A stretch of DNA of 64,000 nt from an uncultured Chloroflexia bacterium (GTDB lineage: Bacteria; Chloroflexota; Dehalococcoidia; SM23-28-2; RBG-16-64-32), in NCBI GenBank assembly GCA_963738925.1, contig CAVTYE010000001.1, forward strand, positions 770,159-834,158, written 5' to 3'. The notes below the pieces were generated by a model. It ran no database searches and had not been told where the DNA came from. It saw only the letters and a list, made by a program, of their open reading frames with translations. How positions within the stretch are numbered: position 1 is the first letter of the stretch; each line of letters opens with the position of its first letter. Made by a program: the position numbers and the translations under genes. Below, piece by piece: positions 10,621-64,000 of this stretch.

Positions 10621-10667
10621 GAACTTGATTGTAGCGGCTATGATTGTCGCCGAAAGGAGCTGCCCAA

Positions 10668-11126: not shown

Positions 11127-11170
11127 TCAAATTCGGGTAGAATGGCGCCACCAACGCCAAGGGAGGCCCC

Positions 11171-11656: not shown

Positions 11657-11765
11657 TCCGAATACGCGAACGACCGTAGGGGCGCAGCGCCCCCGATTCT
11701 GATATCGCCGCTGTCCAGGTGGTGTTCCGCCAAAGTATGGGTTCGCCGGCAGGGCCGCTACGCCT

Positions 11766-25642: not shown

Positions 25643-25792
25643 CATACTTTCAGGGATGGCGGCGGCGCTGTCAACGCTGTCCCGCAGCGGGGCGCCGCTG
25701 AGCGAGTGCAACTCGCCCCTACCCTCGCACCTCGCACCTCACAGCTCGCTCCCCCTTCCCTCCAGCCCCTCCCGCCCCGTACGCTGGCCGCA

Positions 25793-28440: not shown

Positions 28441-28442
28441 CG

Positions 28443-28784
28443 ATGGAACCTGGTACGGAAGCGGTCCTGCTGCGCATCTTCATCGGCGAGAGCGATCACT
28501 GGCACGGCCGCCCGCTCCATGTCGCGCTGGTCGAAGAGGCGCGCAAGCAGGGGCTGGCCGGGGCCACCGTCACCCGCGGGATGTCCGGTTTCGGCGCCAA
28601 CAGCGTGATCCACACGGCGCGCCTGCTGGAGCTGTCCTCCGATTTGCCGATGCTGGTGGAGATCGTGGACACGCAGGAGAAGATCGATGCGTTCCTGCCA
28701 CAACTCCACGAGATGGTGGGCGATGGGCTGGCCACGATGGAGCGGGTGCGCGTCCTCTTCTACCGCCACCGCGAGGGCGACTAG
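28443..28784 (+). CDS. DUF190 protein (P-II-like, CrcB-associated)
   Basis: 113 aa. The crcB-DUF190 pairing is widespread. Confidence 0.7.
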   Translation: MEPGTEAVLLRIFIGESDHWHGRPLHVALVEEARKQGLAGATVTRGMSGFGANSVIHTARLLELSSDLPMLVEIVDTQEKIDAFLPQLHEMVGDGLATMERVRVLFYRHREGD

Positions 28785-35310: not shown

Positions 35311-36564
35311 ATGAAGATAGCGTCTTTCGTACCATCCAGCACGAACTCATCCAGGGCGATCCTGATCATCGAGGTGGCCCTGGTCATCGCAGCGGCGGCC
35401 ATCTGGTGGACCTTCGGCAGCGCCGCCGCCCAGACCAACAGCCTGGGAGTTGACCACAACGGCGGCTCGCCGGACATCAACGCCGGCCCGGCGCTGGTGG
35501 CCCAGGGCGCTTTGACAACCGTCTCGATAGTCGCCGATCCGCCGGTACCCGGCCTCGGCGGCTGGACAGTGAACGTCTTCTACGACCCGGCGGTGGTCAC
35601 CCCCACAGGCTGCGCCACGGCCGGGGATAGCTCCTCCTGCAACACGGCGTTCCTGAGCAACGCGGTGCGATTTTCCGGGCTGAAGGTCGCCGGGCTGTTC
35701 AACCCGACGGACATCGCAGACATCACGTTCCAGGGGGTCGGCTCCGCCGGTCAGTGCAGCGACCTGCAGCCGGAGGCGGTGAGCTGGAACGACCCATCGG
35801 CTGTCAACCTGATCCGGCCGACGGTATCGCTGGGCCAGGTGTGCGTGACCTCTGCGCCGACGCCGACCGCGTCGCCGACCGCCTCACCAACAGCCTCTCC
35901 GACAGCTTCGCCGACCGCCTCTCCGACTGCCTCACCAACCGCCTCTCCGACCGCTTCGCCGACGCCGACTGCCTCGCCAACCGCCTCTCCGACAGCTTCG
36001 CCGACGCCAACTGCATCCCCCACTCCGACAGCCTCTCCAACGCCATCTCCAACGCCCACCGCCTCGCCGACACCTTCACCAACGCCGACAGCCTCGCCGA
36101 CGGCATCGCCAACGCCGACCGCCTCGCCCACGGCCTCTCCGACGCCGACGCCAACTCCGACGGTCAAAGAGACGCCGTCGCCGACCGACAAGCCGACGCC
36201 CACACCAACTCCCACGAAGACGCCCGCCGGCGAGTGCGACGGGCGGCCCGCCACGATCGTCGGCACCGAGAGGAGCGACTGGATCTGGGGCACGCGCGGC
36301 GATGACGTGATCCTGGCGCTCGGCGGCAACGACCTCGTCTTCGGCAACGGCGGCGACGACGTCATCTGCCTGGGTCCCGGCCACGACGCCGCCATCGGAG
36401 GCCGCGGCGACGATCGCATCTTTGGTGAGGAAGGCAACGACGTGCTCTGGGGCGGTGGCGGCTCGGACTACCTTGACGGCGGTCCCGGCTTCGACCTCTG
36501 CTTCGGCGGCTGGGGCCACGACACAAAGGTGAACTGCGGCTTCTACTTCCGCTGGTTCCGCTAG
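35311..36564 (+). CDS. secreted protein with cohesin-like domain, (T/P)ASP linker and RTX-type Ca-binding repeats
   Basis: Signal or TM anchor, then a beta-rich cohesin-like domain, ~100 aa of [10 protein letters not shown] repeats and GGxGxD repeats ([15 protein letters not shown]...[13 protein letters not shown]). ATG follows GGAGG. Confidence 0.6.
35870..36160 (+). repeat. in-frame tandem 12/18-bp repeat encoding the (T/P)ASP linker
   Basis: Near-identical units: gcctc(g/t)cc(g/a)ac(a/c)gcc, etc. Confidence 0.7.
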
Positions 36565-49296: not shown

Positions 49297-49363
49297 GCCG
49301 CCGCGCCGCCGTCACCTTGACCCCTTTTTCCCTATCTGATAGCATCCTGTTCAACTGAATACG

Positions 49364-49482
49364 GACCCTTATCCAGAGAGGTGGAGGGCGACGGCCCTGT
49401 GAAGCCCGGCAACCGGTCCAGTTTTACGAAATGGGACACGGTGCCAATGCCGTCCCCCGCAGCGCGGGGGGACGATAAGGCA
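49364..49482 (+). ncRNA. SAM-I (S-box) riboswitch
   Basis: P1 CCCTTATC...GATAAGG. Conserved core AGAGAGGTGGAGGGCGACGGCCCTGTGAAGCCCGGCAACC. P3/P4 segments GGTGCCAATGCCGTCCCCCGCAGCGCGGGGGGAC. Confidence 0.8.
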
Positions 49483-49490
49483 AAACGCAT

Positions 49491-49523
49491 CCTCTTCTGG
49501 CAAATTCGGAAGAGGCTTTTTTT
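49491..49523 (+). terminator. riboswitch expression-platform terminator
   Basis: CCTCTTC-N11-GAAGAGG followed by TTTTTTT. Confidence 0.75.
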
Positions 49524-49629
49524 ATGCCACAACTCAACCAGGCAAGAATGGCGATGGCACGGGCCTCCGCTCGCAAGGGCGGGAGGCCCCGCCAGCAGCT
49601 CTGATTTCAACAACCGGAGGTAAGCCATC

Positions 49630-50910
49630 GTGCCTGTCCTTAGTCCAGACGAAAGATCGTTCGCCAAGCACCTCAGATGCAGGGAGTGCGGCCGCACCTA
49701 CGAGCTGACGCCCTCCAACGTCTGCGAGTACTGCTTCGGCCCGCTGGAAGTCTTCTACGACTACGAAGCGCTGAAGGGCCACCTGACGCGGAGGCGCATC
49801 GAAGGCGGCCCGCCGACGATGTGGCGCTACGCCCCGCTATTGCCCGTCGATGCCGCCACGGCAGTCGACATCGGCACCGGCTACACGCCGCTCTTGCGGG
49901 CGCCGAACCTGGGCCGGGCGCTTGGGCTGAGCCGCCTGTACATCAAGAACGACTGCCAGAACCCCACCTGGTCGTTCAAAGACCGCGTCGTTTCCGTGGC
50001 CAGCAGCGTCGCCCGCGCCTTCGAGTTCGATACGCTGGCCTGCGCCTCCACAGGCAATCTGGCCAACAGCGTCGCCGCCCACGCCGCCCGCGCCGGCATG
50101 CGCGCCTGCGTCTTCATCCCCTCTGACCTGGAGCAGGGCAAGATCATCGGCTCAGCGGTCTATAACCCGACGCTGGTCGCCGTCGACGGCAGCTACGACG
50201 ACGTCAACCGCCTCTGCAGCGAACTCGGCGACAAGTACCCCTGGGCCTTCGTCAACATCAACGTCCGCCCCTACTACGCCGAGGGCAGCAAGACCCTGGC
50301 CTACGAGGTCTGCGAGCAACTGGGCTGGCGCGCCCCGGACCACTGCATAGCGCCGATGGCCAGCGGATCGCTCTTCACCAAGATCTACAAGGGGATCAAG
50401 GAGCTGTCCTGGCTGGGCCTGATCGATTGGAACGGGACGCGGATGAGCGGAGCCCAGGCGCTGGGCTGCTCGCCGATCGCCGAGGCCTGGGGCCGCGGCA
50501 GCATGAACATCCGGCCGCAGAAGCCGAAGACGATCGCCAAGTCTCTGGCCATCGGCAACCCGGCCGACGGATACTACGCTCTGAAGATCATGAACGAGAC
50601 GAACGGAGCCGCCGCCGCCGTCACCGACGACGAGGTGATCGAAGGGATCAAGCTCCTGGCCGAGACCGAGGGCATCTTCGCTGAGACAGCGGGCGGCGTC
50701 GTCATCTCCGGGCTGCGGCAGCTGATCCGCGAAGGCAAAGTCGGCGCTGACGAAGTCGTCGTCGCCTTCATCACCGGCGCCGGACTAAAGACGCAGGAGG
50801 CCGTGGCGCCCGCGCTGCAACCGCCGCTGCAGGTCCAGGCCACCATCGAATCGTTCGAGCACGAGCTGGAAGAGCGCGAAGGCGGCCTTCCGCTGGCGAA
50901 GGCGGTGTAG
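49630..50910 (+). CDS. threonine-synthase-like PLP enzyme with N-terminal zinc ribbon (MetM-like homocysteine synthase candidate)
   Basis: CxxC-x13-CxxC ribbon, then a ThrC-fold with PLP lysine WSFKDR. A second thrC paralog in the window. GTG start 9 nt after GGAGG. Confidence 0.7.
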   Translation: MPVLSPDERSFAKHLRCRECGRTYELTPSNVCEYCFGPLEVFYDYEALKGHLTRRRIEGGPPTMWRYAPLLPVDAATAVDIGTGYTPLLRAPNLGRALGLSRLYIKNDCQNPTWSFKDRVVSVASSVARAFEFDTLACASTGNLANSVAAHAARAGMRACVFIPSDLEQGKIIGSAVYNPTLVAVDGSYDDVNRLCSELGDKYPWAFVNINVRPYYAEGSKTLAYEVCEQLGWRAPDHCIAPMASGSLFTKIYKGIKELSWLGLIDWNGTRMSGAQALGCSPIAEAWGRGSMNIRPQKPKTIAKSLAIGNPADGYYALKIMNETNGAAAAVTDDEVIEGIKLLAETEGIFAETAGGVVISGLRQLIREGKVGADEVVVAFITGAGLKTQEAVAPALQPPLQVQATIESFEHELEEREGGLPLAKAV

Positions 50911-50911
50911 C

Positions 50912-51154
50912 ATGGAGAGCCTGCGCGTAAAGTTCACATTCGTCGAAGATCTGATCAAGGAGCCGATCATCTGGAAGCTGGCCAAGGAGTTCGACGTCGT
51001 CACCAACATCCGCCGCGCCGACGTCACCGACGAACGCGGCTGGGTGGTCCTGGAGCTGGACGGTGACCGCGAAGAGATCGAACGCGGTTTGGAGTGGGTG
51101 CGCCAGAACGGCGTCCGCGTCGACCCGGTATACGAAGACATCGTGGAAGGTTAG
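50912..51154 (+). CDS. stand-alone NIL-domain protein
   Basis: 80 aa alignable to the MetN C-terminal NIL domain, including the N-I-x-x-A core (VVTNIRRA), a G-x-hydrophobic-ELDG segment and C-terminal V+V. Confidence 0.5.
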   Translation: MESLRVKFTFVEDLIKEPIIWKLAKEFDVVTNIRRADVTDERGWVVLELDGDREEIERGLEWVRQNGVRVDPVYEDIVEG

Positions 51155-51157
51155 GTC

Positions 51158-51433
51158 ATGGCCATAAACGTACGCATCCCGACGCCGCTGCGGAAGCTGA
51201 CCAGGGAAAAGGACATCGTTCAGGGCAGCGGCGATACCCTCGGCGAAGTGATCGAGACGCTGGAGGCGGAGTTTCCCGGCCTCAAGGACCGCCTCTGTGA
51301 CGAAACTGGCGAGCTGCGCCGCTTCGTCAACGTCTACGTGAACGGCGAAGACGTGCGGTTCCAGGACGGCCTCTCCACGCGCCTCACCGGCAACGACGAG
51401 GTCAGCATCGTCCCGGCCGTCGCCGGGGGCTAG
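51158..51433 (+). CDS. CysO/MoaD/ThiS-family sulfur carrier protein (MetO-like)
   Basis: 91 aa ending VPAVAGG. Core RFVNVYVNGEDVRF is like M. tuberculosis CysO. Confidence 0.75.
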   Translation: MAINVRIPTPLRKLTREKDIVQGSGDTLGEVIETLEAEFPGLKDRLCDETGELRRFVNVYVNGEDVRFQDGLSTRLTGNDEVSIVPAVAGG

Positions 51434-51435
51434 CG

Positions 51436-51942
51436 ATGGAAGAGCGGCTCAAGCACTGGAGACTCGCCCCCGGGGGTTACCACGCGCTCCTCGGCGTTGA
51501 CCGCTACGTCTACGACAGCGGCCTCGAACACTCGCTGCTGGAGCTGGTCAAGCTGCGCGCTTCACAGATCAACGGCTGCGCCTACTGCATCGACATGCAC
51601 TGGAAGGACGCCCGCGCCGGCGGGGAGACAGAGCAGCGCCTCTACTCGCTCAACGCCTGGCGGGAAGCGCCGTTCTACACGGACCGTGAGCGCGCCGCCC
51701 TGGACTGGACGGAGGCGCTGACCCTGATCTCGGAGACCCACGCCCCGGACGAGACGTACGCCGCGGTCCGGGCCCAGTTCAGCGAGAAGGAGACCGTCGA
51801 TCTCTCGCTGGCCATCGCCATGATCAACGCCTGGAACCGGATGAGCATCTCCATGCGCGCCCCTGAGGCCGGCATCTACGACCCCAGCCGCCGCAAGCAG
51901 GCCCCATCAGCGGCCCCGGCAAAGGCGTTGGGTGGCGACTGA
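51436..51942 (+). CDS. carboxymuconolactone decarboxylase (AhpD-like) family protein
   Basis: CxxC-H motif GCAYCIDMH. Confidence 0.75.
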   Translation: MEERLKHWRLAPGGYHALLGVDRYVYDSGLEHSLLELVKLRASQINGCAYCIDMHWKDARAGGETEQRLYSLNAWREAPFYTDRERAALDWTEALTLISETHAPDETYAAVRAQFSEKETVDLSLAIAMINAWNRMSISMRAPEAGIYDPSRRKQAPSAAPAKALGGD

Positions 51943-52063
51943 CTTCGGACTGACCCGGCCGCTATCCGCACACTCTTGACGCGACCGCGCCAGCCGCATA
52001 ATTTGGGGCTGCCATCCACAGCCACATCCCCGTCCTTGATGCCGCAGACCGGAGACAAGCCCA

Positions 52064-52312
52064 ATGCAAGACCCGGCGCTGGCCTTCATCCTTGAAGAGG
52101 CCCTGGCGCTGCTCGACGCCGGCGAAGCACCGGAGTCGATCATCGAACGCTTCCCGGAGGCGGCGGCGAAACTGAGGCCACTGCTCGATCTCGCCGGCAC
52201 CCTCAAGGAGACCGCCGAAGACGCGATCGAGGTGCCCATGGAAGCGCTGGAGGAGATCGGGGACTTTCTCCAGGAGCACTTTGACGAAGTGCTCGAACAT
52301 CGCACAGACTAG
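52064..52312 (+). CDS. small acidic hypothetical protein
   Basis: 82-aa ORF, codon usage consistent with the surrounding genes. No motif. Confidence 0.3.
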   Translation: MQDPALAFILEEALALLDAGEAPESIIERFPEAAAKLRPLLDLAGTLKETAEDAIEVPMEALEEIGDFLQEHFDEVLEHRTD

Positions 52313-52317
52313 GCGGC

Positions 52318-52812
52318 ATGGACCGCGTCGCAATCCAGGACCTCTACGACTATAACGGCTTCGCCTGGGAGCAGATCGCCGGAACCATCGCCGAAGCAGG
52401 CGAAGAGATCCTCGCCAGGAAAGTCCGGGGCTCCGGCTGGCCCGCCCTGGGTGATTGCCTGGCCCACATGGGTTTCGCCTACGACGTCTGGGTGACGAGG
52501 CTCAACGGCGCCGAGATGCTGGAGTTTCCCAAAGACCCCTCGTGGCCCCAGATCCAGGCCTACTGGCAGACCGTGCGTGAGCGCTTCAAGTCATACCTGG
52601 ACAGCTTGAGCGACGAACAGCTCCACACCGTGCGCGACATCGATGCTTTCGGCGGCACGCTGCGCTATCCGCCGGCCGACATCCTGGCCAACGTCGTCAC
52701 GCACGACGTTGCGCACCTGGGCGACGTGTCCACGCTTCTCTACCAGATGGGGCTGGAGATGCCTTCCGTGGCGTATCGGTTTTACACGGAGGCCAAATAT
52801 GAGTATTCTTGA
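52318..52812 (+). CDS. DinB-family (DUF664-like) protein
   Basis: 164 aa with DinB_2-type conserved His residues. Confidence 0.5.
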   Translation: MDRVAIQDLYDYNGFAWEQIAGTIAEAGEEILARKVRGSGWPALGDCLAHMGFAYDVWVTRLNGAEMLEFPKDPSWPQIQAYWQTVRERFKSYLDSLSDEQLHTVRDIDAFGGTLRYPPADILANVVTHDVAHLGDVSTLLYQMGLEMPSVAYRFYTEAKYEYS

Positions 52813-52838
52813 CGCGAAGCGGCTTATCAACATACAAT
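52809..52838 (+). promoter_or_regulatory. sigma70-like promoter TTGACG-N18-TACAAT upstream of the sulfite reductase gene
   Basis: A near-consensus -35/-10 pair in an otherwise high-GC genome, 43 bp upstream of the sir ATG. Confidence 0.35.
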
Positions 52839-52880
52839 TCTGACTAATCGGACTGACAAAGTCGACTTCAAAGGCGCGCT

Positions 52881-54704
52881 ATGACTGTTCAAGAGAAACC
52901 CTTCACCTTCGACGCTCACCCCAAGGTACCGGTGGACCTGCGGCCCGGCCGCATCTTCGTCACCCTTGACGAAGAGATCGACAACTACGAGATCGAAGCG
53001 GACCGCTACCGCGCCAACCGCGAAGAGCTGGAGGGCGAGTTCACCCCGTTCCGCCTGCGCATGGGCACCTACGGCCAGCGCCAGATGGACCAGCAGATGA
53101 TGCGGATCAAGCTCCCCTACGGCGGCATCGACGCCGACCAGATGGACGTTATGGCCGAGATCGCCGAGAAGTACTCCGGCCTCCGCCGCGGCCACATCAC
53201 CACCAGGGAGAACATCCAGTTTCACTTTGTCGACCTGATCAAGGCCGGCGACGTCATGCGCCTGCTCACCGGCGTTGGCCTGACCACGCGCGAGGCCTGC
53301 GGGCACACCGTCCGCAACGTCACGGCCTGCCCCTACGCCGGCGTCTCCGACCACGAGCTGTTCGACGTGACGCCGTACCTGGCGGCCTACGCCCGCAACA
53401 TGCTGCGCAACCCGATCTGCCAGAACATGCCGCGCAAGTGGAAGACCTCGTTCTCCTGTGGCCCGGTGGACTGCGCCGGCAGCCTCTTCCACGACATGGG
53501 CTTCGTCGCCGCCGTCAAGACCGAGGGCGGCAAGGAAGTCCGCGGCTTCAAGATGGTGGTTGGCGGCGGCACCTCCACGATGGCGCGCAAGGCTGAGACC
53601 CTCTACGAATTCGTAACCGCCGACGACGGACGCTACATCCGCGTCGCCGAAGCCGCACTCAAGGTGTTCGACAAGGAGGGTGGCTTCCCGCAGCTCCTGC
53701 GCAAAAACATGAACAAGGCGCGCGTCAAGTTCCTGGTCCAGAAGATCGGCATCGAAGAGTTCCGCCGCCAGGTCGAAGAAGAGCTGGCCGAGCCCTGGGC
53801 CGACGAGCCCCTGGACATGCACGCCCTGATGCAGCTGGCCCCGGAAGGCCCCACCCCCGGCGAAGCGCCCAACGGCATCCGCCCGGGCCCCGACTTCGAC
53901 CGCTGGGTCAAGACGAACGTCATCAAGCAGCGCCAGCCCGGCTACGTCGCCGTCACGATCACGGTGCCGATGGGCAACCTCTCCCCGGAGCAGTTCCGCG
54001 GTCTCGCCACGCTGATGCGGCGCTTCGCCGGCGGCAACGCCCGGACCCAGCAGAACCAGAACCTGGTCCTCCGCTGGGTGCGAGAAGAGGGGCTGCCTGC
54101 GCTCCACGCCGGCCTCAAGGAGCAGGGCCTCGGCGCGGCCGACGCCGGCTTCATCGCCGATACTGTCGCCTGCCCGGGCACAGACTCCTGCAAGATGGGC
54201 ATCACCTCCTCCCAGGGAGTCGGCTACGCGATCCGCGAGGCCGTCGAAACCTGGGGCTACGACGACGACCAGCTCGTCCAGAACATCAACATCAAGGCCA
54301 GCGGCTGCCCCAACGGCTGCGCCCAGCACCACCTGGCGGCGATCGGCCTGCAGGGCTCATCGTTCACCGCCAACGGCACCTCGATCCCCTGCTTCGATAT
54401 CTCGCTGGGCGGCGGCAACTACAACACGGAGGGCGGCGGCAAGTTCGGCGTCCGCGTCGCCCGCGTCCCTTCCAAGCGCGCACCGCTGGCGATCAAGAAG
54501 CTGATCGATCACTACGTAGCCAACCGCGAAAACGGCGAAGAGTTCGTGGCTTTCGTGGACCGCGTCGGCGCCAAGACGCTCGACCCGCTACTGGACGAGT
54601 TCAAGGAAGTCGGCCCGATCCACGAGGACATCCAGATGTACATGGACTGGGGCAAGGAAGAGCTCTTCGAGGTGGTCCGCGGCGAAGGCGAGTGCTCGGT
54701 CTAA
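52881..54704 (+). CDS. sir: assimilatory sulfite reductase (ferredoxin-dependent, siroheme/4Fe-4S hemoprotein)
   Basis: 607-aa monomeric NiR/SiR-type protein with a Cys cluster (CGHT...C...C). Confidence 0.85.
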   Translation: MTVQEKPFTFDAHPKVPVDLRPGRIFVTLDEEIDNYEIEADRYRANREELEGEFTPFRLRMGTYGQRQMDQQMMRIKLPYGGIDADQMDVMAEIAEKYSGLRRGHITTRENIQFHFVDLIKAGDVMRLLTGVGLTTREACGHTVRNVTACPYAGVSDHELFDVTPYLAAYARNMLRNPICQNMPRKWKTSFSCGPVDCAGSLFHDMGFVAAVKTEGGKEVRGFKMVVGGGTSTMARKAETLYEFVTADDGRYIRVAEAALKVFDKEGGFPQLLRKNMNKARVKFLVQKIGIEEFRRQVEEELAEPWADEPLDMHALMQLAPEGPTPGEAPNGIRPGPDFDRWVKTNVIKQRQPGYVAVTITVPMGNLSPEQFRGLATLMRRFAGGNARTQQNQNLVLRWVREEGLPALHAGLKEQGLGAADAGFIADTVACPGTDSCKMGITSSQGVGYAIREAVETWGYDDDQLVQNINIKASGCPNGCAQHHLAAIGLQGSSFTANGTSIPCFDISLGGGNYNTEGGGKFGVRVARVPSKRAPLAIKKLIDHYVANRENGEEFVAFVDRVGAKTLDPLLDEFKEVGPIHEDIQMYMDWGKEELFEVVRGEGECSV

Positions 54705-54793
54705 ATATGAGATGCGAGGTGTGAAAGCCCCGCGCCGCCCTGCGATGACCGGCGACCAAACAAGCAATAAATATCGGGAGGACAAACAAGGAA

Positions 54794-55516
54794 ATGAAGG
54801 AAGCAGTTAAGTACACGGCTGCGGACGTCGATGCGCTGAACGCTGAGCTGGGCGGCAAGTCGGCCGAAGAGATCGTCCGCTGGGCCGGGCAGGCTTTCGG
54901 GTCAGACATCAAGTTCGCCAACAGCTTCGGGGCGGAAGACGTCGTGATGATGGACATCATCGCGCGCATCTCCCCGAACATCCGCGTCTTCACCCTGGAC
55001 ACCGGCCGCCTCAACGACGAGACCTACGAGGTGATGGAGGCGACGCGGTTCAAGTACCCGGACATCAAGATCGAAGTCATGTTCCCGGACGCCGCCAAGG
55101 TCGAAGGGCTGACCCGCGAGAAGGGCTTCTTCTCCTTCCGCGACAGCGTTGAGTTGCGCAAGGAGTGCTGCGCCATCCGCAAGGTGCAACCGCTAAAGCG
55201 CGCCCTGTCCGACGCCAGCTCCTGGATGACCGGCCTGCGGCGAGATCAGTCCGTCACCCGCACCGACACCCCGGCCATCGAGTGGGACGAGGGCAACGGC
55301 ATGGTGAAGGTGAACCCGATCATCGAGTGGTCCAACGACGACGTCTGGGCCTACATCAAGACGAACAAGATCCCCTACAACAAGCTGCACGACAAGGGCT
55401 TCCCCAGCATCGGCTGCGCACCCTGCACCCGCGCCATCAAGCCCGGCGAGGACATCCGCGCCGGGCGCTGGTGGTGGGAGAACCCAGAGTTCAAGGAGTG
55501 CGGTCTGCACGAGTAG
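54794..55516 (+). CDS. cysH: adenylyl-sulfate (APS) reductase, Fe-S type CysH
   Basis: PAPS-reductase fold with CC...CxxC cluster ligands ([13 protein letters not shown]), indicating an APS-utilising enzyme. Confidence 0.85.
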
Positions 55517-55595
55517 CCCAAGCGTTTCAAGTCAACGAACGCATGTAGAGACGCCCCCCGGGGCGTCTCTATGGCGTAACTGGAATGGACAACAC

Positions 55596-56783
55596 ATGAC
55601 ACCCGGTGAAACAAATCCTGCCCACGGCGGGCGCCTGATCGACCTGGTGGCCGGCGGCAGCGAGGCGCAGGCCCTGCGCGAGCAGACGGCGAAGATGCCC
55701 GCCGTCACGCTCAACTCGCGGACGCTGTCAGACCTGGAGCTCCTGGCCGTCGGCGGCTACAGCCCGCTGGAAGGCTTCATGACCCAGGCCGACTACCGCG
55801 CCGTCGTCGATGGCATGCACCTGGCGGACGGGCTGCCCTGGTCGATGCCGATCACCCTCGCCGTCAGCGACGAAGAGGCGCAGTCGATCAGCGAGGGCGA
55901 CGACATCGCCCTAGCCGATGAGACCGGCCGCATCCTGGCCTCGATGCACGTGCGTGAGAAGTTCGGCTACGACAAGCGAGTCGAGGCGGAGAACGTCTAC
56001 CGCACCGAAGACGAAAAGCACCCCGGCGTGGCCGCCCTCTACGCGCAGGGCGACGTCCTGCTCGGCGGGCCGGTGCGGGTGCTGGAAGTCCCGGGGCACG
56101 ACGACTTCCCGGAATACCGGCTGACCCCGGCGCAGACCCGGGCCGCCTTCGCTGAGCGCGGCTGGCGCACGATCGTCGGCTTCCAGACGCGGAACCCCGT
56201 GCACCGCGCCCACGAGTACATCCAGAAGGCGGCGATGGAGATCGTCGACGGCCTGCTGCTGCACCCGCTGGTCGGCGACACCAAGTCCGACGACATCCCC
56301 GCCGACGTGCGGATGCGCTGCTACGAGGTCCTGATCGAGAACTACTACCCGGCCGGCCGCGTCGTCCTCTCCGTGAACCCGGCGGCGATGCGCTACGCCG
56401 GCCCACGCGAGGCGATCTTCCACGCGCTGGTGCGCAAGAACTTCGGCTGCACCCACTTCATCGTTGGCCGTGACCACGCCGGCGTCGGCAACTACTACGG
56501 GACCTTCGATGCCCAGCTCATCTTCAACGAGTTCGATTCCCAGGCGCTGGGCATCGTGCCGCTGATGTTCGAGCACTCCTTCTACTGCAAGAAATGCGAC
56601 GGGCTGGCCAGCGTCAAGACCTGCCCCCACGACGCCGAGTCCCGCGTCAGCCTCTCCGGCACCCAGGTGCGCGACATGCTGAAAGGCGGGATCGCGCCGC
56701 CGCCGGAGTTCTCGCGCCCGGAAGTAGCCGAAGTGCTGATCAAGGCGATGCAGGACCACGCGACGCCGCACCATGCGATCTGA
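55596..56783 (+). CDS. sat: sulfate adenylyltransferase (ATP sulfurylase)
   Basis: QTRN and GRDHAG motifs. Confidence 0.9.
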
Positions 56784-56792
56784 TGGGCGCAC

Positions 56793-56809
56793 ATACCCCA
56801 CCGGGGTAT
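56793..56809. promoter_or_regulatory. perfect palindrome ATACCCC-ACC-GGGGTAT overlapping a TACAAT -10-like element, upstream of rrf2
   Basis: 7-bp arms. Shares the 11-mer CCCCACCGGGG with the site upstream of csoR. TACAAT at 56813-56818. Confidence 0.4.
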
Positions 56810-56843
56810 GCTACAATGTTGACGGAGATTATCGGGAATAGGG

Positions 56844-57287
56844 ATGAAAGTATCGACAAAGGGTGACTACGGCATCCGCGCTCTGATTGAGCTGGCGCAC
56901 CACTACGGTGAGGTCCGGCCGACTCAGAGCAGCGAGATCGCTGCGCGCCAGAAAGTGCCGGAATCGTACCTGGAGCAGCTGCTGACGACGCTGCGCCGGG
57001 CCGGCTTCATTCGCAGCGTGCGCGGCCCCCAGGGCGGCCACGCCCTGGTCCGCGACCCGCGTGACCTGCGTGTCTCCGAGGTGATCGAGGCGCTGGAGGG
57101 GCCGATCATGCCCAGCGATTGCCTGGACGACGGCGGCGCCTGCGCCAAGGGGGGCGGCTGCGCCCAATCGGACATGTGGGCCTCCGTCCGCGAAGCGATC
57201 CTCGGCGTCCTGGACACGACAACCATCGCCGACCTGGCAGCACTGGACCGGGCGGCCCAACCAGTCGGCGCCCGGTACAACATTTAG
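56844..57287 (+). CDS. Rrf2-family transcriptional regulator (IscR/CymR-like, three-Cys type)
   Basis: N-terminal HTH (KGDYGIRALIELA...) and a C-terminal C-x6-C-x5-C cluster. Confidence 0.8.
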   Translation: MKVSTKGDYGIRALIELAHHYGEVRPTQSSEIAARQKVPESYLEQLLTTLRRAGFIRSVRGPQGGHALVRDPRDLRVSEVIEALEGPIMPSDCLDDGGACAKGGGCAQSDMWASVREAILGVLDTTTIADLAALDRAAQPVGARYNI

Positions 57288-57296
57288 GAGCAAAGA

Positions 57297-58220
57297 ATGG
57301 GCCAGAAGATAGCAGACAGCGTCCTCGACCTCGTCGGCAAGACGCCGATGGTCCGCCTCAGGCGGATCGTCCCGGCCGGATCGGCGGAAGTCCTGGGCAA
57401 GATGGAGTCGTTGAACCCGGCGGGCAGCGTCAAGGACCGCATCGCCCTCAACATGATCGAAGCGGCGGAGCGCGAAGGAAAGCTGAAGCCCGGCGACACG
57501 ATCATTGAGCCGACCAGCGGCAACACCGGCATCGGCCTGGCCATGGTCGCCGCCGTTAAAGGCTACAAGCTGGTCGTGACGATGCCGGAAGACATGAGCC
57601 TGGCCCGGCGCGACCTCCTGGCCCGCTACGGCGCCGAAGTCGTCCTGACGCCGGCGATCGAAGGCATGACCGGCGCCGTCTACGCAGCGCAGGAGCTGAT
57701 CGCCAAGAACAGCCAGCTACTTCATGTGCCAGCAGTTCGAAAACGCCGCCAACCCGGATATCCACCGACGCACAACCGCGCTCGGAGATCCTGGAGGCGA
57801 CCGAGGGCCGCCTCGACGCGTTCGTCGCCGGCGTCGGCACCGGCGGCACGATCACCGGCGTCGGCGAGGTGCTGCGCGAAAAGCTCGGCGCCGCGCTGCT
57901 GATCGTCGCGGTGGAGCCCTCGCGTTCGCCGGTCCTGGAAGGCGGCCGCGCCGGGGTCCACGCGATCCAGGGCATCGGCGCCAGCTTCGTGCCGGGCGTG
58001 CTGAACCGCGAGGTCTACAACGAGATCATCGCCGTCACCGACGAGGACGCGATCGAGATTTCGCGCCGGCTCTGTCGAGAGGAGGGGATGCTGGTCGGCA
58101 TCTCCGCCGGGGCCAACGTCTGGGCGGCCGATCAAAGTGGCCAAGCGCCTGGGCGCCGGCAAGCGCGTCGTGACTGTGCTTCGCGATACCGGTGAGCGAT
58201 ACTTGCAGATGGAGTCCTAA
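57297..58220 (+). pseudogene. cysK: cysteine synthase A (O-acetylserine sulfhydrylase), three +1 frameshifts in this sequence
   Basis: PLP lysine SVKDR, then in three further frames [24 protein letters not shown] and IKVAKRLGAGKRVVTVLRDTGERYLQMES. Each shift is a single inserted base. Confidence 0.8.
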
Positions 58221-58253
58221 AGTGCTGTCTGGATACAAAGATGAAAGTTAGCT

Positions 58254-59350
58254 GTGTACATCCCGACACCCTTCCGCCGCTTCGCGGGCAACCAGACCCG
58301 CGTCCACACGGAGGGCAACACCGTCGGCGAAGTGCTGGACCGGCTGGGCCAGGACTACCCTTCGCTGCGCAACATGATCTACGACGAGAAAGACGAGATC
58401 CCGGGCCACATCAACATCTACCTCAACAACACCGAGATCCACACGCTCCAGGGCAAGGCCACCATCGTCCACGACGGCGACGAGATGGCCGTGATCCCGG
58501 CCATCGCCGGCGGCGCCACGGCCCTGACCCCCGACCAGGTGGAGCGCTACTCGCGGCACATCATCATGCCGCAGGTCGGCCCTTCCGGGCAGCGCAAGCT
58601 GATGGAGGCGAAGGTGCTGATCGTCGGCGCGGGCGGCCTCGGCGGGCCGGCGGCGCTGTACCTGGCGCTGGCCGGCGTCGGCACCATCGGCATCGTCGAC
58701 TTCGACACCGTCGACCTCTCCAACCTGCAGCGGCAGGTGCTGCACCAGACCGCCGACGTCGGCAAGTCCAAGGCTCAGTCGGCCAAGGAGACCCTGAACG
58801 CCTACAACCCGGACGTCAAGGTGGTGCTGCACGAGACGCCGCTCACCTCCGACAACGCGATGGAGATCATCCCCCAGTACGACATCGTCGTGAACGGCGC
58901 CGACAACTTCACCACCCGCTACCTGGTCAACGACGCCGCGTACTTCGCCGGCAAGACGCTGGTGGACGGCAGCATCCTCCTCTTCGACGGGCAGGCCACG
59001 GTGTTCATGCCCGGCAAGGGCTGCTACCGCTGCCTCTTCCCCGCGCCGCCGCCGCCCGGCCTGGTGCCGAGCTGCGCCGAGGCCGGCGTCCTCGGCGCTC
59101 TGACCGGCATCATGGGCTCGATCCAGGCGACCGAGGCGATCAAGCATGATCCTGGAGATCGGCGAGCCGCTGGTCGGCCGCCTGCTCCTGGTCGATGCGC
59201 TGACGATGGAGTTCCGCGTCGTCAAGCTGCGGCGCGACCCGAAGTGCCCGCTCTGCGGCGACGACCCCGACGATCGAAGAGCTGATCGACTACGAAGGCT
59301 TCTGCGGTTCCCCGTTTCCCGGCGGCCACGAGGAACGGAGCCCAGCAGTC
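58254..59350 (+). pseudogene. moeZ: CysO/MoaD-like sulfur carrier fused to MoeB/MoeZ-type E1 adenylyltransferase, at least one frameshift near 59145. 3' end uncertain.
   Basis: N-terminal 87 aa ending AIAGG with HINIYLN. Continuous with RYSRHIIMPQVG and GAGGLGGP, then the CxxC...CPLCGDDP zinc motif in the next frame. No rhodanese domain. Confidence 0.6.
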
Positions 59351-59626
59351 ATGAGCATCAAAGTCAGCGTCACCGGCAGCATGCAGAAGGCGATCGGCGG
59401 CCAGAAGTCCGATCGAGGCGGAGGGCAGCACTGTCGCTCGCCGTCCTCGACGACGTCGATGCCAGGCATCCCGGCTTCAAGGACCTGGTGATGACGGAGG
59501 GCCGGCATCCATCGCTTCGTCAACATCTACCTGAACGATGAGGACGTCCGCTTCCTGGGCCAGCTCGACACCAAGCTGAAGGACGGCGACGTCCTCTCCG
59601 TCCTGCCCGCGCTCGCCGGCGGCTAG
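59351..59626 (+). pseudogene. cysO: sulfur carrier protein CysO, three +1 frameshifts in this sequence
   Basis: Conceptual repair gives MSIKVSVTGSMQKAIGGQKSIEAEGSTV-LAVLDDVDARHPGFKDLVMTEGR-IHRFVNIYLNDEDVRFLGQLDTKLKDGDVLSVLPALAGG, near-colinear with M. tuberculosis CysO. GGAGGAACGGAG RBS upstream. Confidence 0.7.
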
Positions 59627-59635
59627 CGAGACCCG

Positions 59636-60576
59636 ATGCTCGCTGAATCCATCCTCGATACGATCGGCAATACGCCGCTCGTCAAGCTGGCCAAGTTCAG
59701 CCCCAAGCCCGAGCGTCAACATCTACGCCAAGCTCGAGGGGCAGAACCCCACCGGCAGCGTCAAGGACCGCATCGCTGCTCTACATGATCCGCACGGCCG
59801 AGGCCAGCGGCGAGCTGACGCCCGACAAGACGGTGCTCGAGCCAACCAGCGGCAATACCGGCATCAGCCTGGCGATGGTCTGCCGGGCCAAGGGCTACCG
59901 GCTGGTCTGCGTCCTCCCAGACAACGTCACTGCCGAGCGCGAGTCGCTGTTGCGGGCCTTCGGCGCAGAGGTCGTCTACGCGGAGAACGCCACCAGCACC
60001 AACGACGCCGTCTTCAAGGCGCAGCGGATGCTGGCGGAGGACCCCGGCGCCTACTTCATGCCCTACCAGTACGGCAACGAGAACAACCCCCGCGCCCACT
60101 ACGAGACGACCGGCCCCGAGATCCTGCGCGACCTGCCGGAGATCGACATCTTCGTGGCCGGCCTGGGCACAGGTGGCACTTTGACCGGATGCGGCCACTT
60201 CCTGAAGGACAACCGGCCCGGCGTCAAGATCATCGCGGCGGTGCCCCACCCGGGCGACCTCGTGAGGGGCTGCGCGCTGTCGAGGAAGGGTTCATCCCGC
60301 CGGTGCTCGACGAGTCTGTGCTGGACGGCCGCATCGTCGTCGATTCGCTGGCGGCGTTTCGCGATGGCCAAAGAAGTGATGGAGAAAGAAGCGGTCTTCA
60401 CCGGCATCTCCGCCGGCGCGGTGCTGACCGTCGCCGTCCGCGCCGCCGAACGGCTGGAGCGCGGCAACGTCGTGGCGCTGCTGGCCGACGGCGGCTGGAA
60501 GTACCTCTCTACGGGTCTCTGGAGCCGCGACTACGGCGAGTCCCCGGAAGAGACGCAGGGCAAGATCTGGTGGTGA
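59636..60576 (+). pseudogene. cysM: CysM-type cysteine synthase (O-phosphoserine/CysO-thiocarboxylate dependent), about four indels in this sequence
   Basis: Segments [41 protein letters not shown]...EPTSGNTG and GLGTGGTLTG lie in alternating frames. Confidence 0.75.
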
Positions 60577-60602
60577 AAGGCTTCCGTTTTGGCCGGGCGC
60601 TG

Positions 60603-60980
60603 ATGTACGCGACGCTGGGCGCGCTGCTCGCCTTCGTCCTGGCGTCCTACCTCCTGATCGAAAACGGCGGCGCTACGATGCGCACGGTCCAGGAGCTGAG
60701 CCTCCACGACCTGACCAGCTCGCCCCAGAGCTACGACGGGCAGACGGTCATCACCAGCGGCACGCTTGTTCACAATGACGAGCTCGGCGTGTACGAGGTC
60801 GTCGATCCGGACGCCAACTTCCCGCTGGAGATCCGCAAGTTCGGCGAAGGCCTGCTTTCGGCCATGACCGGGAAGTCGGTCCGCGTCTCCGGCAAGTTTG
60901 GCAACAACGGCGGCATCCATATCGACGCGGACGACGTGCGCCTGGTCAGCGCCGGGACGCCCGGCCCGGACGGCGGCTAA
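60603..60980 (+). CDS. hypothetical small membrane-anchored protein
   Basis: One N-terminal TM helix, then a ~100-aa beta-rich domain. Sits between cysM and the JAMM protease gene. Confidence 0.4.
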   Translation: MYATLGALLAFVLASYLLIENGGATMRTVQELSLHDLTSSPQSYDGQTVITSGTLVHNDELGVYEVVDPDANFPLEIRKFGEGLLSAMTGKSVRVSGKFGNNGGIHIDADDVRLVSAGTPGPDGG

Positions 60981-60982
60981 CG

Positions 60983-61375
60983 ATGCGCCTGCCCCAGGAC
61001 TTCGTCGACGAGATGGTGGCCCACGCCGTGGAGGACGCCCCCAACGAGTGCTGCGGCATCATCGCCGGCAAGGACGGCGCGGCGACCAAGCTCTACCGCG
61101 CGCGCAACTCGGAGGCCAGCCCCTACCGCTACAGCGTCGACCCCAAGGACCTGCTCCGCATCTTCCACGAGTGTGAGGACAACGACTGGTCGTTCCTGGC
61201 GATCTACCACTCCCACACCGCCAGCGAAGCCTACCCCTCCGGCACCGACGTCCGCCTGGCGTTCTGGCCGGAGGCCCGCTACGTCCTGGTCTCGCTGGCC
61301 CAGGAGAAGCCGGTTGTGCGCGCCTTCCGCATCGAAGAAGGCACCGTCACCGAAGAACCGATCGAGACGGCGTAG
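60983..61375 (+). CDS. mec: JAMM/MPN+ metalloprotease (Mec+-like CysO-cysteine peptidase)
   Basis: JAMM motif E...HSHTASEAYPSGTD plus the CCGII pattern. Confidence 0.8.
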   Translation: MRLPQDFVDEMVAHAVEDAPNECCGIIAGKDGAATKLYRARNSEASPYRYSVDPKDLLRIFHECEDNDWSFLAIYHSHTASEAYPSGTDVRLAFWPEARYVLVSLAQEKPVVRAFRIEEGTVTEEPIETA

Positions 61376-62049: not shown

Positions 62050-62462
62050 GGCCGCGGCCCGGTGTTAGGTATGGCGAAGGTCAGGCGCGCCTTCGCCAGC
62101 AGCTCGTTGTCGCCGCGGCGGTGTGTCTCCACCTCGCCGAACGCCACGCCCTCGCCGATGCGGGTGACCTTCCCCTCGAAGACGAGCTCGTCGCCGGGCG
62201 TGGCGTAGCCGAAGAAGCTGGTGCTCATGTCGATCGTCGCGTGCGGTCCCTCCTCCTGCCGCGCCGCATCTCCGCGCAGCCTGCCGAGCCCGATTCCGAC
62301 GACTGAGTCCATCACCGCAGTCAGCACGCCGGCGTGAACGCGGCCGGCGCTGTCGGCGTGGTGCGGGTAAGTCACCAGCGAGAGGCGAACGTAGCCTTCG
62401 CTGACCTGCTCGGCCACCGCGCCGATGAAGGCGGTGAACGGCGCGCGGACCGGTTCAGGCAC
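62046..62462 (-). CDS. PaaI/4HBT hotdog-fold thioesterase family protein
   Basis: Hotdog core with HAGV...DS..G. GTG start. Confidence 0.6.
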   Translation of the reverse strand: MPEPVRAPFTAFIGAVAEQVSEGYVRLSLVTYPHHADSAGRVHAGVLTAVMDSVVGIGLGRLRGDAARQEEGPHATIDMSTSFFGYATPGDELVFEGKVTRIGEGVAFGEVETHRRGDNELLAKARLTFAIPNTGPRP

Positions 62463-62883
62463 TGCGCGGCACCGGGATCGCAAACGTGAAGCGCCCCTTG
62501 GCGATAAGGTCGTTGCTGCCGCGCTTGCGCACCTCCGCTTCGCCGAAAGCGATCGAGCGGCCGACCCTGAGCGAGCTCCCTTCGACGATGATCTCATCGC
62601 CGGGGCGCGCCGCCGAAAGGAAGCTGACGTTCATCTCCACCGTTGCCGGCGGCGCGGCTCTCATCGCTTCCATGCCGCGAATGCCGGCCAGGACGGCCCC
62701 CGCCGTCTCATCCATCAGCGTCGTCAGGACTCCGCCGTGCATCACGCCGCCCGGGTTCAGGTGCTTCTCTTCGATCAGGAGCGCCATTCGTGCGTAGCCC
62801 TCCCGCTGCTCCTCCAGCCGCGCGCCGATCGCCTGCACGAACGCCGAAGGCAGGTCTGTCTGTGGTGTGGTCATCTGGTCCAT
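62455..62883 (-). CDS. PaaI/4HBT hotdog-fold thioesterase family protein (paralog)
   Basis: VMHGGVLTTLMDETAG signature. Confidence 0.7.
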   Translation of the reverse strand: MDQMTTPQTDLPSAFVQAIGARLEEQREGYARMALLIEEKHLNPGGVMHGGVLTTLMDETAGAVLAGIRGMEAMRAAPPATVEMNVSFLSAARPGDEIIVEGSSLRVGRSIAFGEAEVRKRGSNDLIAKGRFTFAIPVPRSA

Positions 62884-63723
62884 CCTCTCGCGACGGCGTC
62901 GGCCATCTTGGCCACGCGCGCCATCTGTTTCACGTCGTGCACGCGGATGATGTCCGCGCCGTTGGCGATGGCGATAGCCATCGTCGCGCCGGTGCCTTCG
63001 ATGCGGTCTTCCACCGGCAGGCCCAGCACGTTGCCGATCGTCGACTTGCGCGAGGTGCCGATCAGGACCGGCCGCCCGAGCACCCGCAGCTCACCCAGGC
63101 GGCGGAGCATCTCCAGCGCCTGGTCGTCCGTCCAGCCGAAGTTGAAGCCGGGGTCGACGATGATCTGCTCGTCCGGCAGCCCGTGCTCCCGCGCCACCGC
63201 CAGGCTCTCCAGGAGCCCTTCGACGACGTTGCCGATCGTGTCCTTGAACACGTGGCCGCGGTGGTAGTACATCGCGATCGCGGGCACACCGGCCCGGGCG
63301 GCTACGCTCGCGATCTCCGGCTCGCGCAGGAACCCGTGCACGTCGTTGACGAGCGCCGCGCCGGCTTCGATGGCTGCCTTGGCGACTCGCGGCCTTGTAG
63401 GTGTCGATGCTGACCGGGATGTCCAGCTCTCGCGCCAGCCGTTCAACCACCGGGACCGTACGACGCAGCTCTTCGTCCTCCTCCACCTCGGCGAAGCCGG
63501 GCCGCGTCGACTCGCCGCCGACGTCGATGATGTCGGCGCCGTCCTCCCGCATCTGGACGGCCTGTCGCAGCGCCGCCTCGACGTCGCCGCTGAGCCCGTC
63601 GCCGGAGAACGAGTCCGGCGTCACGTTGACGACGCCCATCACGTACGTCCGCGAGCCCCAGGCGAACTCCCGCCCGCCGATCCTGATCGGCGCCGGGGCG
63701 CGGGCCGCGATCTCGCTGGGCAT
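62871..63723 (-). pseudogene. folP: dihydropteroate synthase, +1 frameshift near 63395 in this sequence
   Basis: N-terminal GVVNVTPDSFSGDG and DIIDVGGESTRPG, and C-terminal LIGTSRKS...GADIIRVHDV, lie in two frames. Removing one g in tacaagGccg restores the reading frame. Confidence 0.8.
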
Positions 63724-63792: not shown

Positions 63793-64000
63793 ATGAGCGA
63801 CTACCCGAACCCAGGCATCCTGGCCGAGACGGACTGGCTCGCCGAGCACATGGGCGACCCAAACCTGCGAATCGTGGACTGCGACGAGCTACCGGCCTAC
63901 CTGCGCGTCCACATCGACGGCGCGGTCGGCCTGCGCGTGCACCATTACCTGAAGAGCGAGGGCGATTCGGCATCCGGCCCCGGCATCGGCGTGAACCTGA
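63793..64000 (+). CDS. rhodanese-domain sulfurtransferase (N-terminal part; 3' end outside window)
   Basis: Open frame from ATG 63793: MSDYPNPGILAETDWLAEHMGDPNLRIVDCDELPAYLRVHIDGAV, a typical thiosulfate/3-mercaptopyruvate sulfurtransferase N-terminus. Confidence 0.5.
   Translation, partial: MSDYPNPGILAETDWLAEHMGDPNLRIVDCDELPAYLRVHIDGAVGLRVHHYLKSEGDSASGPGIGVNL

Follow-up and report, generated by a model that had tools for sequence, protein, structure and literature searches.

Gene content and conservation of the locus

We analyzed a 64,000-nucleotide stretch of DNA (contig CAVTYE010000001.1, hereafter the window) from an uncultured Chloroflexota bacterium, in which positions 49,364–61,375 hold a cluster of genes predicted to serve sulfate reduction and the assimilation of sulfur into cysteine and methionine. 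Coordinates are those of the whole 64-kb stretch, which has a G+C content of ~67%. According to the open reading frame (ORF) listing, all genes of this interval lie on the + strand. An initial annotation had described a riboswitch-metM-NIL-metO-ahpD module followed by sir, cysH, sat, an Rrf2 regulator gene, cysK, a fusion of a CysO-like domain with a MoeB-like adenylating enzyme (E1), cysO, cysM, and genes for a small membrane protein and a JAMM peptidase. Rfam, Pfam, and NCBIfam assignments bear out this gene content on one strand, with four of the genes becoming readable only after indel correction. Two genes located between ahpD and sir, encoding an 82-aa acidic protein and a DinB-family protein, were absent from that description. 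The cluster is flanked by ResB, Lgt, and a MarR-like gene on the left and, on the right, by folK, two thioesterase genes, and folP, all on the opposite strand; its boundaries had therefore been placed correctly.

Scanning species-representative genomes with Sat retrieved nine related loci (L001–L009), all from Dehalococcoidia or Chloroflexota metagenome-assembled genomes (MAGs), with Sat identities of 75–89%. The order common to these relatives is metM-NIL-metO-...-sir-cysH-sat-[373-aa membrane protein]-rrf2-cysK-fusion-cysO-cysM-membrane protein-JAMM, and their cysK, E1 fusion, cysO, and cysM genes are intact. The homologs are hence linked rather than scattered, and since the order is kept in nine MAG loci the linkage is not due to chance. 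Distant phyla carry partial versions, e.g. sir-cysH-...-cysM-JAMM-carrier::E1 in a Bacteroidetes MAG.

The sat-rrf2 gap of all nine relatives contains a gene of ~1.14 kb (e.g. positions 7755–8876 of L001 and 5552–6670 of L002) encoding a 372–373-aa membrane protein with a weak match (35 bits) to the Na/Pi-cotransporter family, possibly a sulfate or sulfite transporter. This gene is cleanly absent from the window (junction 56784–56792), where the conserved upstream region of rrf2 lies within 10 nt of the sat stop codon. Both this absence and the frameshifts in four genes had been overlooked in the initial annotation.

From these data, we consider it probable that the cluster is a conserved sulfur-assimilation locus with sulfate-reduction, cysteine, and methionine units and a fused-domain E1, and that the indels described below are errors. 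The single operon implied earlier gives way to several transcription units: we infer at least four, conserved within this lineage of high-GC Chloroflexota (Dehalococcoidia class). The locus is assembled from modules that have already been described and would not surprise a specialist. Its lineage-specific traits are the stand-alone NIL gene between metM and metO, and the N-terminal CysO-like domain on the E1, which ends in an invariant Gly-Gly.

The SAM riboswitch and the metM-NIL-metO module

The first part of the locus contains the following features:

49317–49345, + strand: sigma-70-like promoter upstream of the riboswitch, TTGACC-17-TAGCAT with TG (consensus match only)
49366–49481, + strand: S-adenosylmethionine (SAM)-I (S-box) riboswitch aptamer (Rfam RF00162, 79.9 bits versus a gathering threshold of 44.4, full model 1–108)
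49491–49525, + strand: intrinsic terminator of the riboswitch expression platform, 10-bp stem plus U7 (hairpin 49491–49515 in both the minimum free energy and centroid folds, z = −3.1)
49630–50910, + strand: metM candidate, ThrC-family pyridoxal phosphate (PLP) enzyme with an N-terminal 4-Cys zinc ribbon, 426 aa, intact (Pfam PALP, 230 bits)
50912–51154, + strand: stand-alone NIL-domain protein, 80 aa (Pfam NIL, 61.2 bits)
51158–51433, + strand: metO candidate, CysO-like carrier ending ...VPAVAGG-stop, 91 aa, intact (Pfam ThiS, 69 bits)
51436–51942, + strand: AhpD/CMD-family protein with a CxxC motif, 168 aa, accessory (Pfam CMD, 77 bits; TIGR00778)

The aptamer and the terminator hairpin form the usual transcription-terminating S-box layout, and each of the six relatives whose locus extends that far has a SAM-I riboswitch upstream of metM. 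The metM orthologues occupy the same position in the relatives with 80–90% identity, and the NIL gene sits between metM and metO in every relative covering the region. An ahpD orthologue was found only in L001 among the nine relatives. The module is present as first annotated and matches the published MetM/MetO route to homocysteine.

The ThrC-like enzyme is probably a MetM, judging from its genomic context. An ordinary threonine synthase (49630–50910), accompanied by a MoaD/SAMP-type protein (51158–51433) working in another pathway, would account for the score of the enzyme on the NCBIfam thrC equivalog model (TIGR00260, 274.8, above the cut-off of 167.1), for its best PDB matches, which are threonine synthases aligned over residues 61–407, and for the fact that the metO candidate passes both the SAMP1 (71.3 ≥ 60) and the archaeal MoaD (54.2 ≥ 49.5) models. 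No model in Pfam or NCBIfam and no PDB structure separates MetM from true ThrC. Nevertheless, we find this explanation barely credible. A SAM riboswitch, i.e. methionine/SAM-specific control, lies upstream here and in 6/6 relatives and is also reported for the metM gene of Streptomyces albulus, and MetM is described in the literature as routinely misannotated as threonine synthase. Moreover, the metO candidate is closer to CysO (86.9 bits with 3dwg_C, the Mycobacterium tuberculosis protein, and 69.8 bits with 4n6e_B) than to the best MoaD (51.5 bits), and the two genes are separated by a NIL domain, which in other settings has links with the transport of methionine and the synthesis of homocysteine.

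In TIGR02314, the NIL protein covers positions 269–338, which correspond to the C-terminal regulatory domain of MetN. A search for its family gave 2759 matches, and the 120 listed are nearly all ~80 aa long and come only from close relatives, with identities of at least 78%. As a guess, this protein could have a methionine-sensing or sulfur-handling accessory role.

Sulfate-reduction genes and the Rrf2 regulator

The middle part of the locus comprises two accessory genes, the sulfate-reduction genes, the rrf2 gene, and three potential control sites:

52064–52312, + strand: acidic helical protein, 82 aa (no Pfam or NCBIfam match)
52318–52812, + strand: DinB-family protein, 164 aa, accessory (Pfam DinB, 56.5 bits)
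52809–52838, + strand: promoter-like site ahead of sir, TTGACG-18-TACAAT (consensus match only)
52881–54704, + strand: sir, monomeric siroheme/[4Fe-4S] sulfite (NirA-type) reductase, 607 aa, intact (Pfam NIR_SIR twice, NIR_SIR_ferr twice)
54794–55516, + strand: cysH, adenosine 5'-phosphosulfate (APS) reductase type, 240 aa, intact (TIGR02055 APS_reductase, 260.8 ≥ 235.3)
55546–55571, + strand: perfect hairpin in the cysH-sat spacer, with 12-nt arms TAGAGACGCCCC/GGGGCGTCTCTA and no U-tail (also in L002)
55596–56783, + strand: sat, ATP sulfurylase, 395 aa, intact (Pfam ATP-sulfurylase and PUA_2; NF003166, 580.7 ≥ 387)
56793–56818, + strand: palindrome ATACCCCACCGGGGTAT followed directly by TGCTACAAT, upstream of rrf2 (conserved in L001–L006)
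56844–57287, + strand: Rrf2-family regulator with three clustered Cys, 147 aa, intact (Pfam Rrf2, 130.7 bits)

The sir product matches the NirA-family models of NCBIfam below their cut-offs, and sulfite is taken as its substrate because of the genomic context. The translation of cysH shows the CC (KECCAIRK), CxxC (GCAPCT), and ECGLH motifs. The 82-aa acidic protein, which is devoid of cysteine, is kept upstream of sir in L001–L007 (38–78% identity); for the DinB-family protein, the only counterpart among the relatives is a weak one in L001 (36% identity). The hairpin between cysH and sat could act at the RNA level, in processing, stability, or attenuation.

The palindrome upstream of rrf2 overlaps a TGnTAnnAT box, and the version found in L003 keeps the arms with a changed central triplet. 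These features suggest a candidate Rrf2 operator overlapping the promoter of the rrf2 unit. There is no other exact copy of the palindrome in the window, and a search for further copies yielded nothing beyond chance; therefore, no regulon can be defined. The regulator had been called IscR/CymR-like. Its membership of the Rrf2 family holds, whereas an assignment at the equivalog level does not, as the protein falls below the cut-offs for CymR (122.7 < 195) and IscR (97.9 < 207) and passes only the Rrf2 superfamily model. Its cysteines (C-x6-C-x5-C) resemble those of Fe-S-binding members, which suggests that it may bind such a cluster.

Single-base indels in the cysK-to-cysM block

The remaining genes of the rrf2 unit are listed below, the first four with coordinates that include their lesions:

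57297–58220, + strand: cysK, 306 aa once corrected (1-base insertions at ~57716, 57782, and 58128; frames 0>1>2>0)
58241–59354, + strand: fusion of a CysO-like domain with a ThiF/MoeB-type E1, 369 aa once corrected (1-base insertions at ~58251, 59147, 59265, and 59332)
59351–59626, + strand: cysO, 90 aa once corrected, ending ...LPALAGG-stop (1-base insertions at ~59412, 59437, and 59506)
59636–60576, + strand: cysM, M. tuberculosis type, 312 aa once corrected (insertions at ~59708, 59779, and 60362; 1-base deletion at ~60265)
60570–60980, + strand: small membrane-anchored protein, 136 aa from GTG 60570 (one N-terminal transmembrane helix and a beta-rich domain)
60983–61375, + strand: JAMM/MPN+ metallopeptidase, Mec-like, 130 aa (Pfam Prok-JAB, 85.8 bits; HSHx7Sx2D motif)

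In a three-frame translation, the cysK, ThiS::ThiF, cysO, and cysM segments each switch frame 3–4 times. These four genes, listed in the initial annotation, are not ORFs as given and contain 14 indels: 13 single-base insertions and 1 single-base deletion, located between 57716 and 60362 and all inside coding sequence. The lesions were placed by alignment to L002, the closest relative covering the whole block, and tblastn with the intact L001 and L004 proteins gave an identical frame walk; they are specific to the window with respect to L001, L002, and L004. The uninterrupted proteins of the relatives measure 305–306 (CysK), ~369–374 (E1 fusion), ~90 (CysO), and 312 aa (CysM). After correction of the 14 indels, no internal stop is left in the four genes, and the corrected CysK passes TIGR01139 (430.8 ≥ 350.95), its intact orthologues in L001, L002, and L004 having 305–306 aa.

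Two explanations of these lesions were weighed. In the first, the frameshifts are real and reflect a recent inactivation of cysK, the E1 gene, cysO, and cysM together with deletion of the transporter gene, giving young pseudogenes and a MetO left without its E1. The confinement of the indels to one 2.65-kb block between intact flanking genes and the clean absence of the 1.14-kb transporter gene of all nine relatives would agree with such an event. In contrast, bacterial gene decay usually favors deletions of mixed size, and here every event is 1 base long with insertions outnumbering deletions 13:1. Window-specific changes at family-invariant residues are not in excess in the repaired genes (12 of 700, versus 13 of 1195 for metM, NIL, metO, sir, cysH, sat, and rrf2), premature stops are lacking after correction, and third codon positions account for 77–81% of the differences to L002 in cysK, E1, and cysM, close to the 69–81% of the intact neighbors. 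The repaired genes show normal purifying selection. Neutral decay that accrued 14 indels should also bring many replacements and mixed indel sizes; as neither is seen, there is no sign of decay. Furthermore, sir-cysH-sat shows no net frameshift relative to L002, and the other upstream genes are intact, with alignments to the relatives that cover all or nearly all of their length. Lacking an E1 or a cysteine synthase, the cell would have no use for sir, cysH, sat, and metM/metO, yet these genes are intact. We regard real inactivation as very improbable.

In the second explanation, the 14 indels are sequencing or assembly errors: the assembly would be prone to indels, with a stretch of poor quality at this place. 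The proteins of the window come from one NCBI/ENA contig of 1,631,477 nt. Lesions of this type are also found outside the block, where four genes of the window are split over two frames with the halves of their Pfam domains in different frames:

19351–20266, − strand: dapA
25757–26873, + strand: ychF
27260–28049, + strand: xdhC
62889–63723, − strand: folP

These cases came from a Pfam test of adjacent ORF pairs, in which 4 of 5 pairs were split genes and the pairs of a further set were separate genes; a frame caller based on G+C content at third codon positions (GC3), run over the whole window, was too noisy for frameshift counts and was replaced by this test. The folP split stems from a single extra C, at 63390, when compared with L002. 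Since the essential genes dapA, folP, and ychF, as well as xdhC, are split outside the sulfur locus, sequence error is the likely cause, and it suggests that the whole assembly carries single-base insertion errors. Errors, rather than biology, most likely explain the 14 indels. Elsewhere in the window, two ORF segments with high GC3 that overlap in different frames (35350–36161, + strand; no Pfam match) may be another frameshifted gene.

CysM, the small membrane protein, and the JAMM peptidase

The best PDB match of the corrected CysM is the M. tuberculosis CysM/O-phosphoserine sulfhydrylase 3dwg_A (296.9 bits over residues 4–311, the next match scoring 251), and the enzyme is predicted to be of the O-phosphoserine/CysO-dependent type. 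With the indels in cysK, cysO, and cysM corrected, family assignments and PDB matches confirm that the locus contains the gene sets for both direct sulfhydrylation (CysK) and the carrier-dependent routes (CysM/CysO and MetM/MetO), as had been noted at first.

The small membrane protein has no Pfam or NCBIfam match. It is encoded at the same position in L002–L009, and only 6 homologues were found in a search of 5.8 billion proteins. An AlphaFold2 model built with the six homologues, a transmembrane helix followed by a small beta-barrel, is of low confidence (predicted local distance difference test 59, predicted template modeling score 0.38). The JAMM protein has an intact motif in its translation, HSHTASEAYPSGTD; it remains below the NCBIfam desampylase cut-off (84.3 < 130), and its PDB matches are 2kks and JAMM1 5lda.

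The carriers and the E1 fusion

MetO, CysO, and the N-terminal domain of the E1 show 34–40% mutual identity and form three separately conserved orthogroups. In the PDB comparison all three match the two solved CysO proteins best, so that they are CysO-like and do not group with MoaD: besides MetO, whose scores are given above, CysO scored 84.3 bits with 3dwg_C, 102.7 with 4n6e_B, and 33.5 with the best MoaD, and the E1-fused domain scored 49.7 and 42.5 bits with the two CysO structures and had no MoaD among the 60 matches listed. The initial annotation had spoken of three carriers. There are indeed three CysO-like sequences, but the third is a domain fused to the E1, which would have no free C-terminus unless it is cleaved.

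The corrected E1 fusion consists of ThiS (residues 5–91) and ThiF (residues 103–336, 281 bits) domains in Pfam, and carries Zn-binding CxxC pairs (CYRC and CPLC) and the PSCAEAG motif (VPSCAEAGV). It had been considered MoeZ-like. The protein passes the NF004281 MoeB subfamily model (301 ≥ 266), whereas only positions 4–275 of the 392 of the MoeZ model are aligned, with a score below the cut-off (378 < 647). It stops ~30 residues past the ThiF domain, with no Rhodanese match in Pfam or NCBIfam, and is consequently MoeB-like, the rhodanese part being absent. Such fusions are abundant; the 120 homologues listed have 362–462 aa (median 377) and no rhodanese domain listed, and nearly all are at least 82% identical, one partial match excepted.

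In 119 of the 120 listed homologues the carrier domain ends in PAIAGG, followed by 9–24 residues before the first E1 helix motif. A more distant homologue, 53% identical, is encoded in a Bacteroidetes MAG (L079; JAKAGT010000053.1, positions 2505–12134) by a sir-cysH-...-cysM-JAMM cluster followed by the CysO-like::E1 fusion gene. It keeps IAGG before a different, acidic linker of 20 residues. Up to the end of the contig there is no separate carrier gene, so this fusion may be the only CysO there. The invariant Gly-Gly, the variable linker, and the adjoining JAMM gene fit a proteolytic release of the fused domain, which could then act as a carrier.

There is a serious alternative, in which the CysO-like part of the E1 is never released and instead is a permanent docking, regulatory, or pseudo-substrate module, leaving CysO and MetO as the only two working carriers. 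Both PLP enzymes are already served by these stand-alone carriers, the distance between Gly-Gly and the first E1 helix is just ~2–5 residues in most family members, and a 2006 survey (PMC1779556) found Ubl-ThiF fusions alongside stand-alone carriers and proposed another role for the fused domain. The invariance of PAIAGG in spite of a linker of 9–24 residues speaks for cleavage, as does the conservation of IAGG in L079 beside cysM and a JAMM gene on a contig part with no separate carrier. The literature also describes JAMM peptidases that cut after Gly-Gly in carrier fusions or extensions (MoaX, SAMP1-MoaE, and Mec). On balance, an unreleased domain seems quite possible to us, if somewhat less likely than not.

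A more far-reaching proposal is that this E1 swapped the rhodanese of MoeZ for a CysO-like domain, either released by JAMM or acting as a built-in relay, so that a self-priming E1 charges CysO and MetO, while NIL is a new MetM/MetO subunit for methionine sensing or sulfur handling. We think this unlikely as a whole. One E1 may nonetheless be shared among the carriers: MoeZR is a single E1 that charges both CysO and MoaD, and the GapMind account of S. albulus names MoeZ as the MetO sulfur ligase.

Comparison with known systems

The closest counterpart of the methionine unit is the MetM/MetO route to homocysteine of S. albulus (Hasebe et al. 2024), here compared through citing papers (bioRxiv 10.1101/2024.10.14.618325 and PMC12172450). 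GapMind 2026 lists MetO, Mec, MoeZ, and MetM for this route and cautions against the misannotation of MetM as threonine synthase, and PMC12172450 mentions a SAM riboswitch upstream of S. albulus metM. As far as these sources describe them, the two systems share a ThrC-homologous PLP enzyme near a carrier of the ThiS/MoaD fold, a SAM riboswitch upstream, and a dependence, predicted for the present locus, on an E1 and a JAMM (Mec) enzyme of the cysteine system that are encoded elsewhere. The present locus differs from the system as reported there by the NIL gene between metM and metO, the E1 without rhodanese, and the presence of sulfate-reduction and CysO/CysM genes alongside. In addition, MetO ends directly in Gly-Gly here and therefore would need no C-terminal trimming, in contrast to the S. 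albulus protein.

The cysteine unit resembles the CysO/CysM/Mec/MoeZ pathway of M. tuberculosis in its CysM, in a CysO ending in Gly-Gly, in the JAMM gene of the same unit, and in an E1 that, like MoeZR, is expected to charge several carriers. Unlike in M. tuberculosis, the E1 is encoded inside the cluster, lacks rhodanese, and has the N-terminal CysO-like domain; CysK and Rrf2 belong to the unit, and the small membrane protein gene separates cysM from the JAMM gene.

Operons that combine ThiS/MoaD-like proteins, E1, JAB peptidases, and cysteine synthases were catalogued by Iyer, Burroughs and Aravind in 2006 (PMC1779556), including operons also joined to sulfate transporters, PAPS reductase, ATP sulfurylase, and sulfite reductase, with a rhodanese-less E1. 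In their type 4e neighborhood, which includes Wolinella succinogenes, a carrier, a JAB peptidase, and a rhodanese-less E1 are linked to ATP sulfurylase, (P)APS reductase, and sulfite reductase, as in the window. Type 4e has an O-acetylhomoserine sulfhydrylase and always a SirA-like protein, whereas the window has a ThrC-like enzyme and no SirA/TusA-like protein: Pfam and NCBIfam found no SirA (CCD1) domain in any ORF of 49.3–61.4 kb. APS kinase is also absent here, and the transporter of the relatives is missing. The same survey reported N-terminal Ubl-ThiF fusions in Campylobacter jejuni ThiF and, beside a cysteine synthase, in Pelobacter propionicus. These likewise place a beta-grasp, carrier-like domain N-terminal to the adenylating domain and co-occur with stand-alone carriers; the fused domain of the present E1 differs in being CysO-like, with an invariant Gly-Gly end and a cysteine/JAMM context that make cleavage plausible.

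A NIL domain is also required for the DUF39/NIL-ferredoxin/COG2122 synthesis of homocysteine in methanogens and Desulfovibrio (PMC5764234). Both cases tie a NIL domain genetically to homocysteine formation, but here the NIL protein has no ferredoxin domain, its partner is MetM-like, and no DUF39 or COG2122 protein is encoded in the cluster. Overall, the locus differs from the operons of the 2006 survey in that its homocysteine enzyme is of the MetM and not the MetY type, a SirA-like protein is lacking, NIL lies inside metM-metO, and both branches and sulfate reduction are found within 12 kb.

Proposed pathway and significance

Based on family assignments, Sat would make APS, the Fe-S APS reductase would convert it to sulfite, and the siroheme reductase would produce sulfide. 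CysK, by homology, would use this sulfide for the direct sulfhydrylation of O-acetylserine. In the carrier-dependent routes, the E1 would adenylate the C-terminal Gly-Gly of CysO and MetO, and the adenylates would become thiocarboxylates through sulfide or persulfide from an unlinked donor. CysM would condense O-phosphoserine with the CysO thiocarboxylate, after which the JAMM peptidase would free cysteine, and MetM would condense the MetO thiocarboxylate with O-phosphohomoserine to give homocysteine. In this scheme the rrf2 unit would provide CysK, the E1, CysO, the M. tuberculosis-type CysM, the small membrane protein, and the JAMM peptidase, and the methionine unit (metM-NIL-metO, with or without ahpD) would borrow the E1 and the peptidase from it. 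At high SAM, the riboswitch would terminate transcription of the methionine unit.

Several points weigh against this overall interpretation. The enzyme activities and thiocarboxylates are deduced from the genes, and the error call on the indels from the assembled sequence. The burst of indels is very local (14 events in 2.65 kb, versus no net event over 7.7 kb of coding sequence directly upstream and at least 4 in the remaining window), and the near-exclusive occurrence of insertions outside homopolymers is an unusual error profile, the density and the 13:1 bias of which are not explained in detail. The transporter gene common to the nine relatives is lost here, hence some real change has taken place at the locus. 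The metM candidate passes the NCBI thrC model, and none of the models or structures consulted distinguishes it from a threonine synthase. Finally, the E1 has no rhodanese and the cluster no SirA/TusA-like protein, unlike such E1s in the 2006 survey.

The pathway matters for gene annotation in these abundant uncultured Chloroflexota, where MetM is named threonine synthase, NIL is named methionine-transporter ATPase, and the E1 fusion is named MoeB or "ubiquitin-like small modifier protein 1". Because MetM, the E1, and NIL are misnamed, automated reconstructions would wrongly assess whether such organisms are prototrophic for cysteine and methionine. With one E1, one JAMM peptidase, and three paralogous CysO-like sequences within 12 kb, the locus is also a compact system for studying how carriers are matched to CysM versus MetM, and it is suited to asking what role the carrier domain fused to the E1 plays. 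Conclusions on gene content drawn from this assembly need frameshift-aware gene calling, as single-base insertions break four genes of the locus and at least 4 housekeeping genes.

Neighboring genes

A rhodanese gene 2.4 kb beyond the cluster had been mentioned in connection with it. Only the N-terminal 69 aa are encoded before the window ends:

63793–64000, + strand: rhodanese-domain fragment, N-terminal 69 aa, cut by the window end (Pfam, 23.2 bits versus a cut-off of 22.2)

Four genes on the opposite strand lie in between, and a counterpart (81% identical) occupies the same place in L002 only, the relative in which alone the folate genes are likewise neighbors. We therefore rejected this edge fragment as a part of the system and regard it as a partial neighbor.

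Elsewhere in the window, a CrcB (fluoride channel) gene is followed by one for a DUF190 protein (28102–28781, + strand); the Rfam scan at gathering thresholds found no fluoride riboswitch. Two tandem genes for 4HBT/PaaI-type thioesterases lie between folK and folP (62073–62883, − strand), arranged as in L002.

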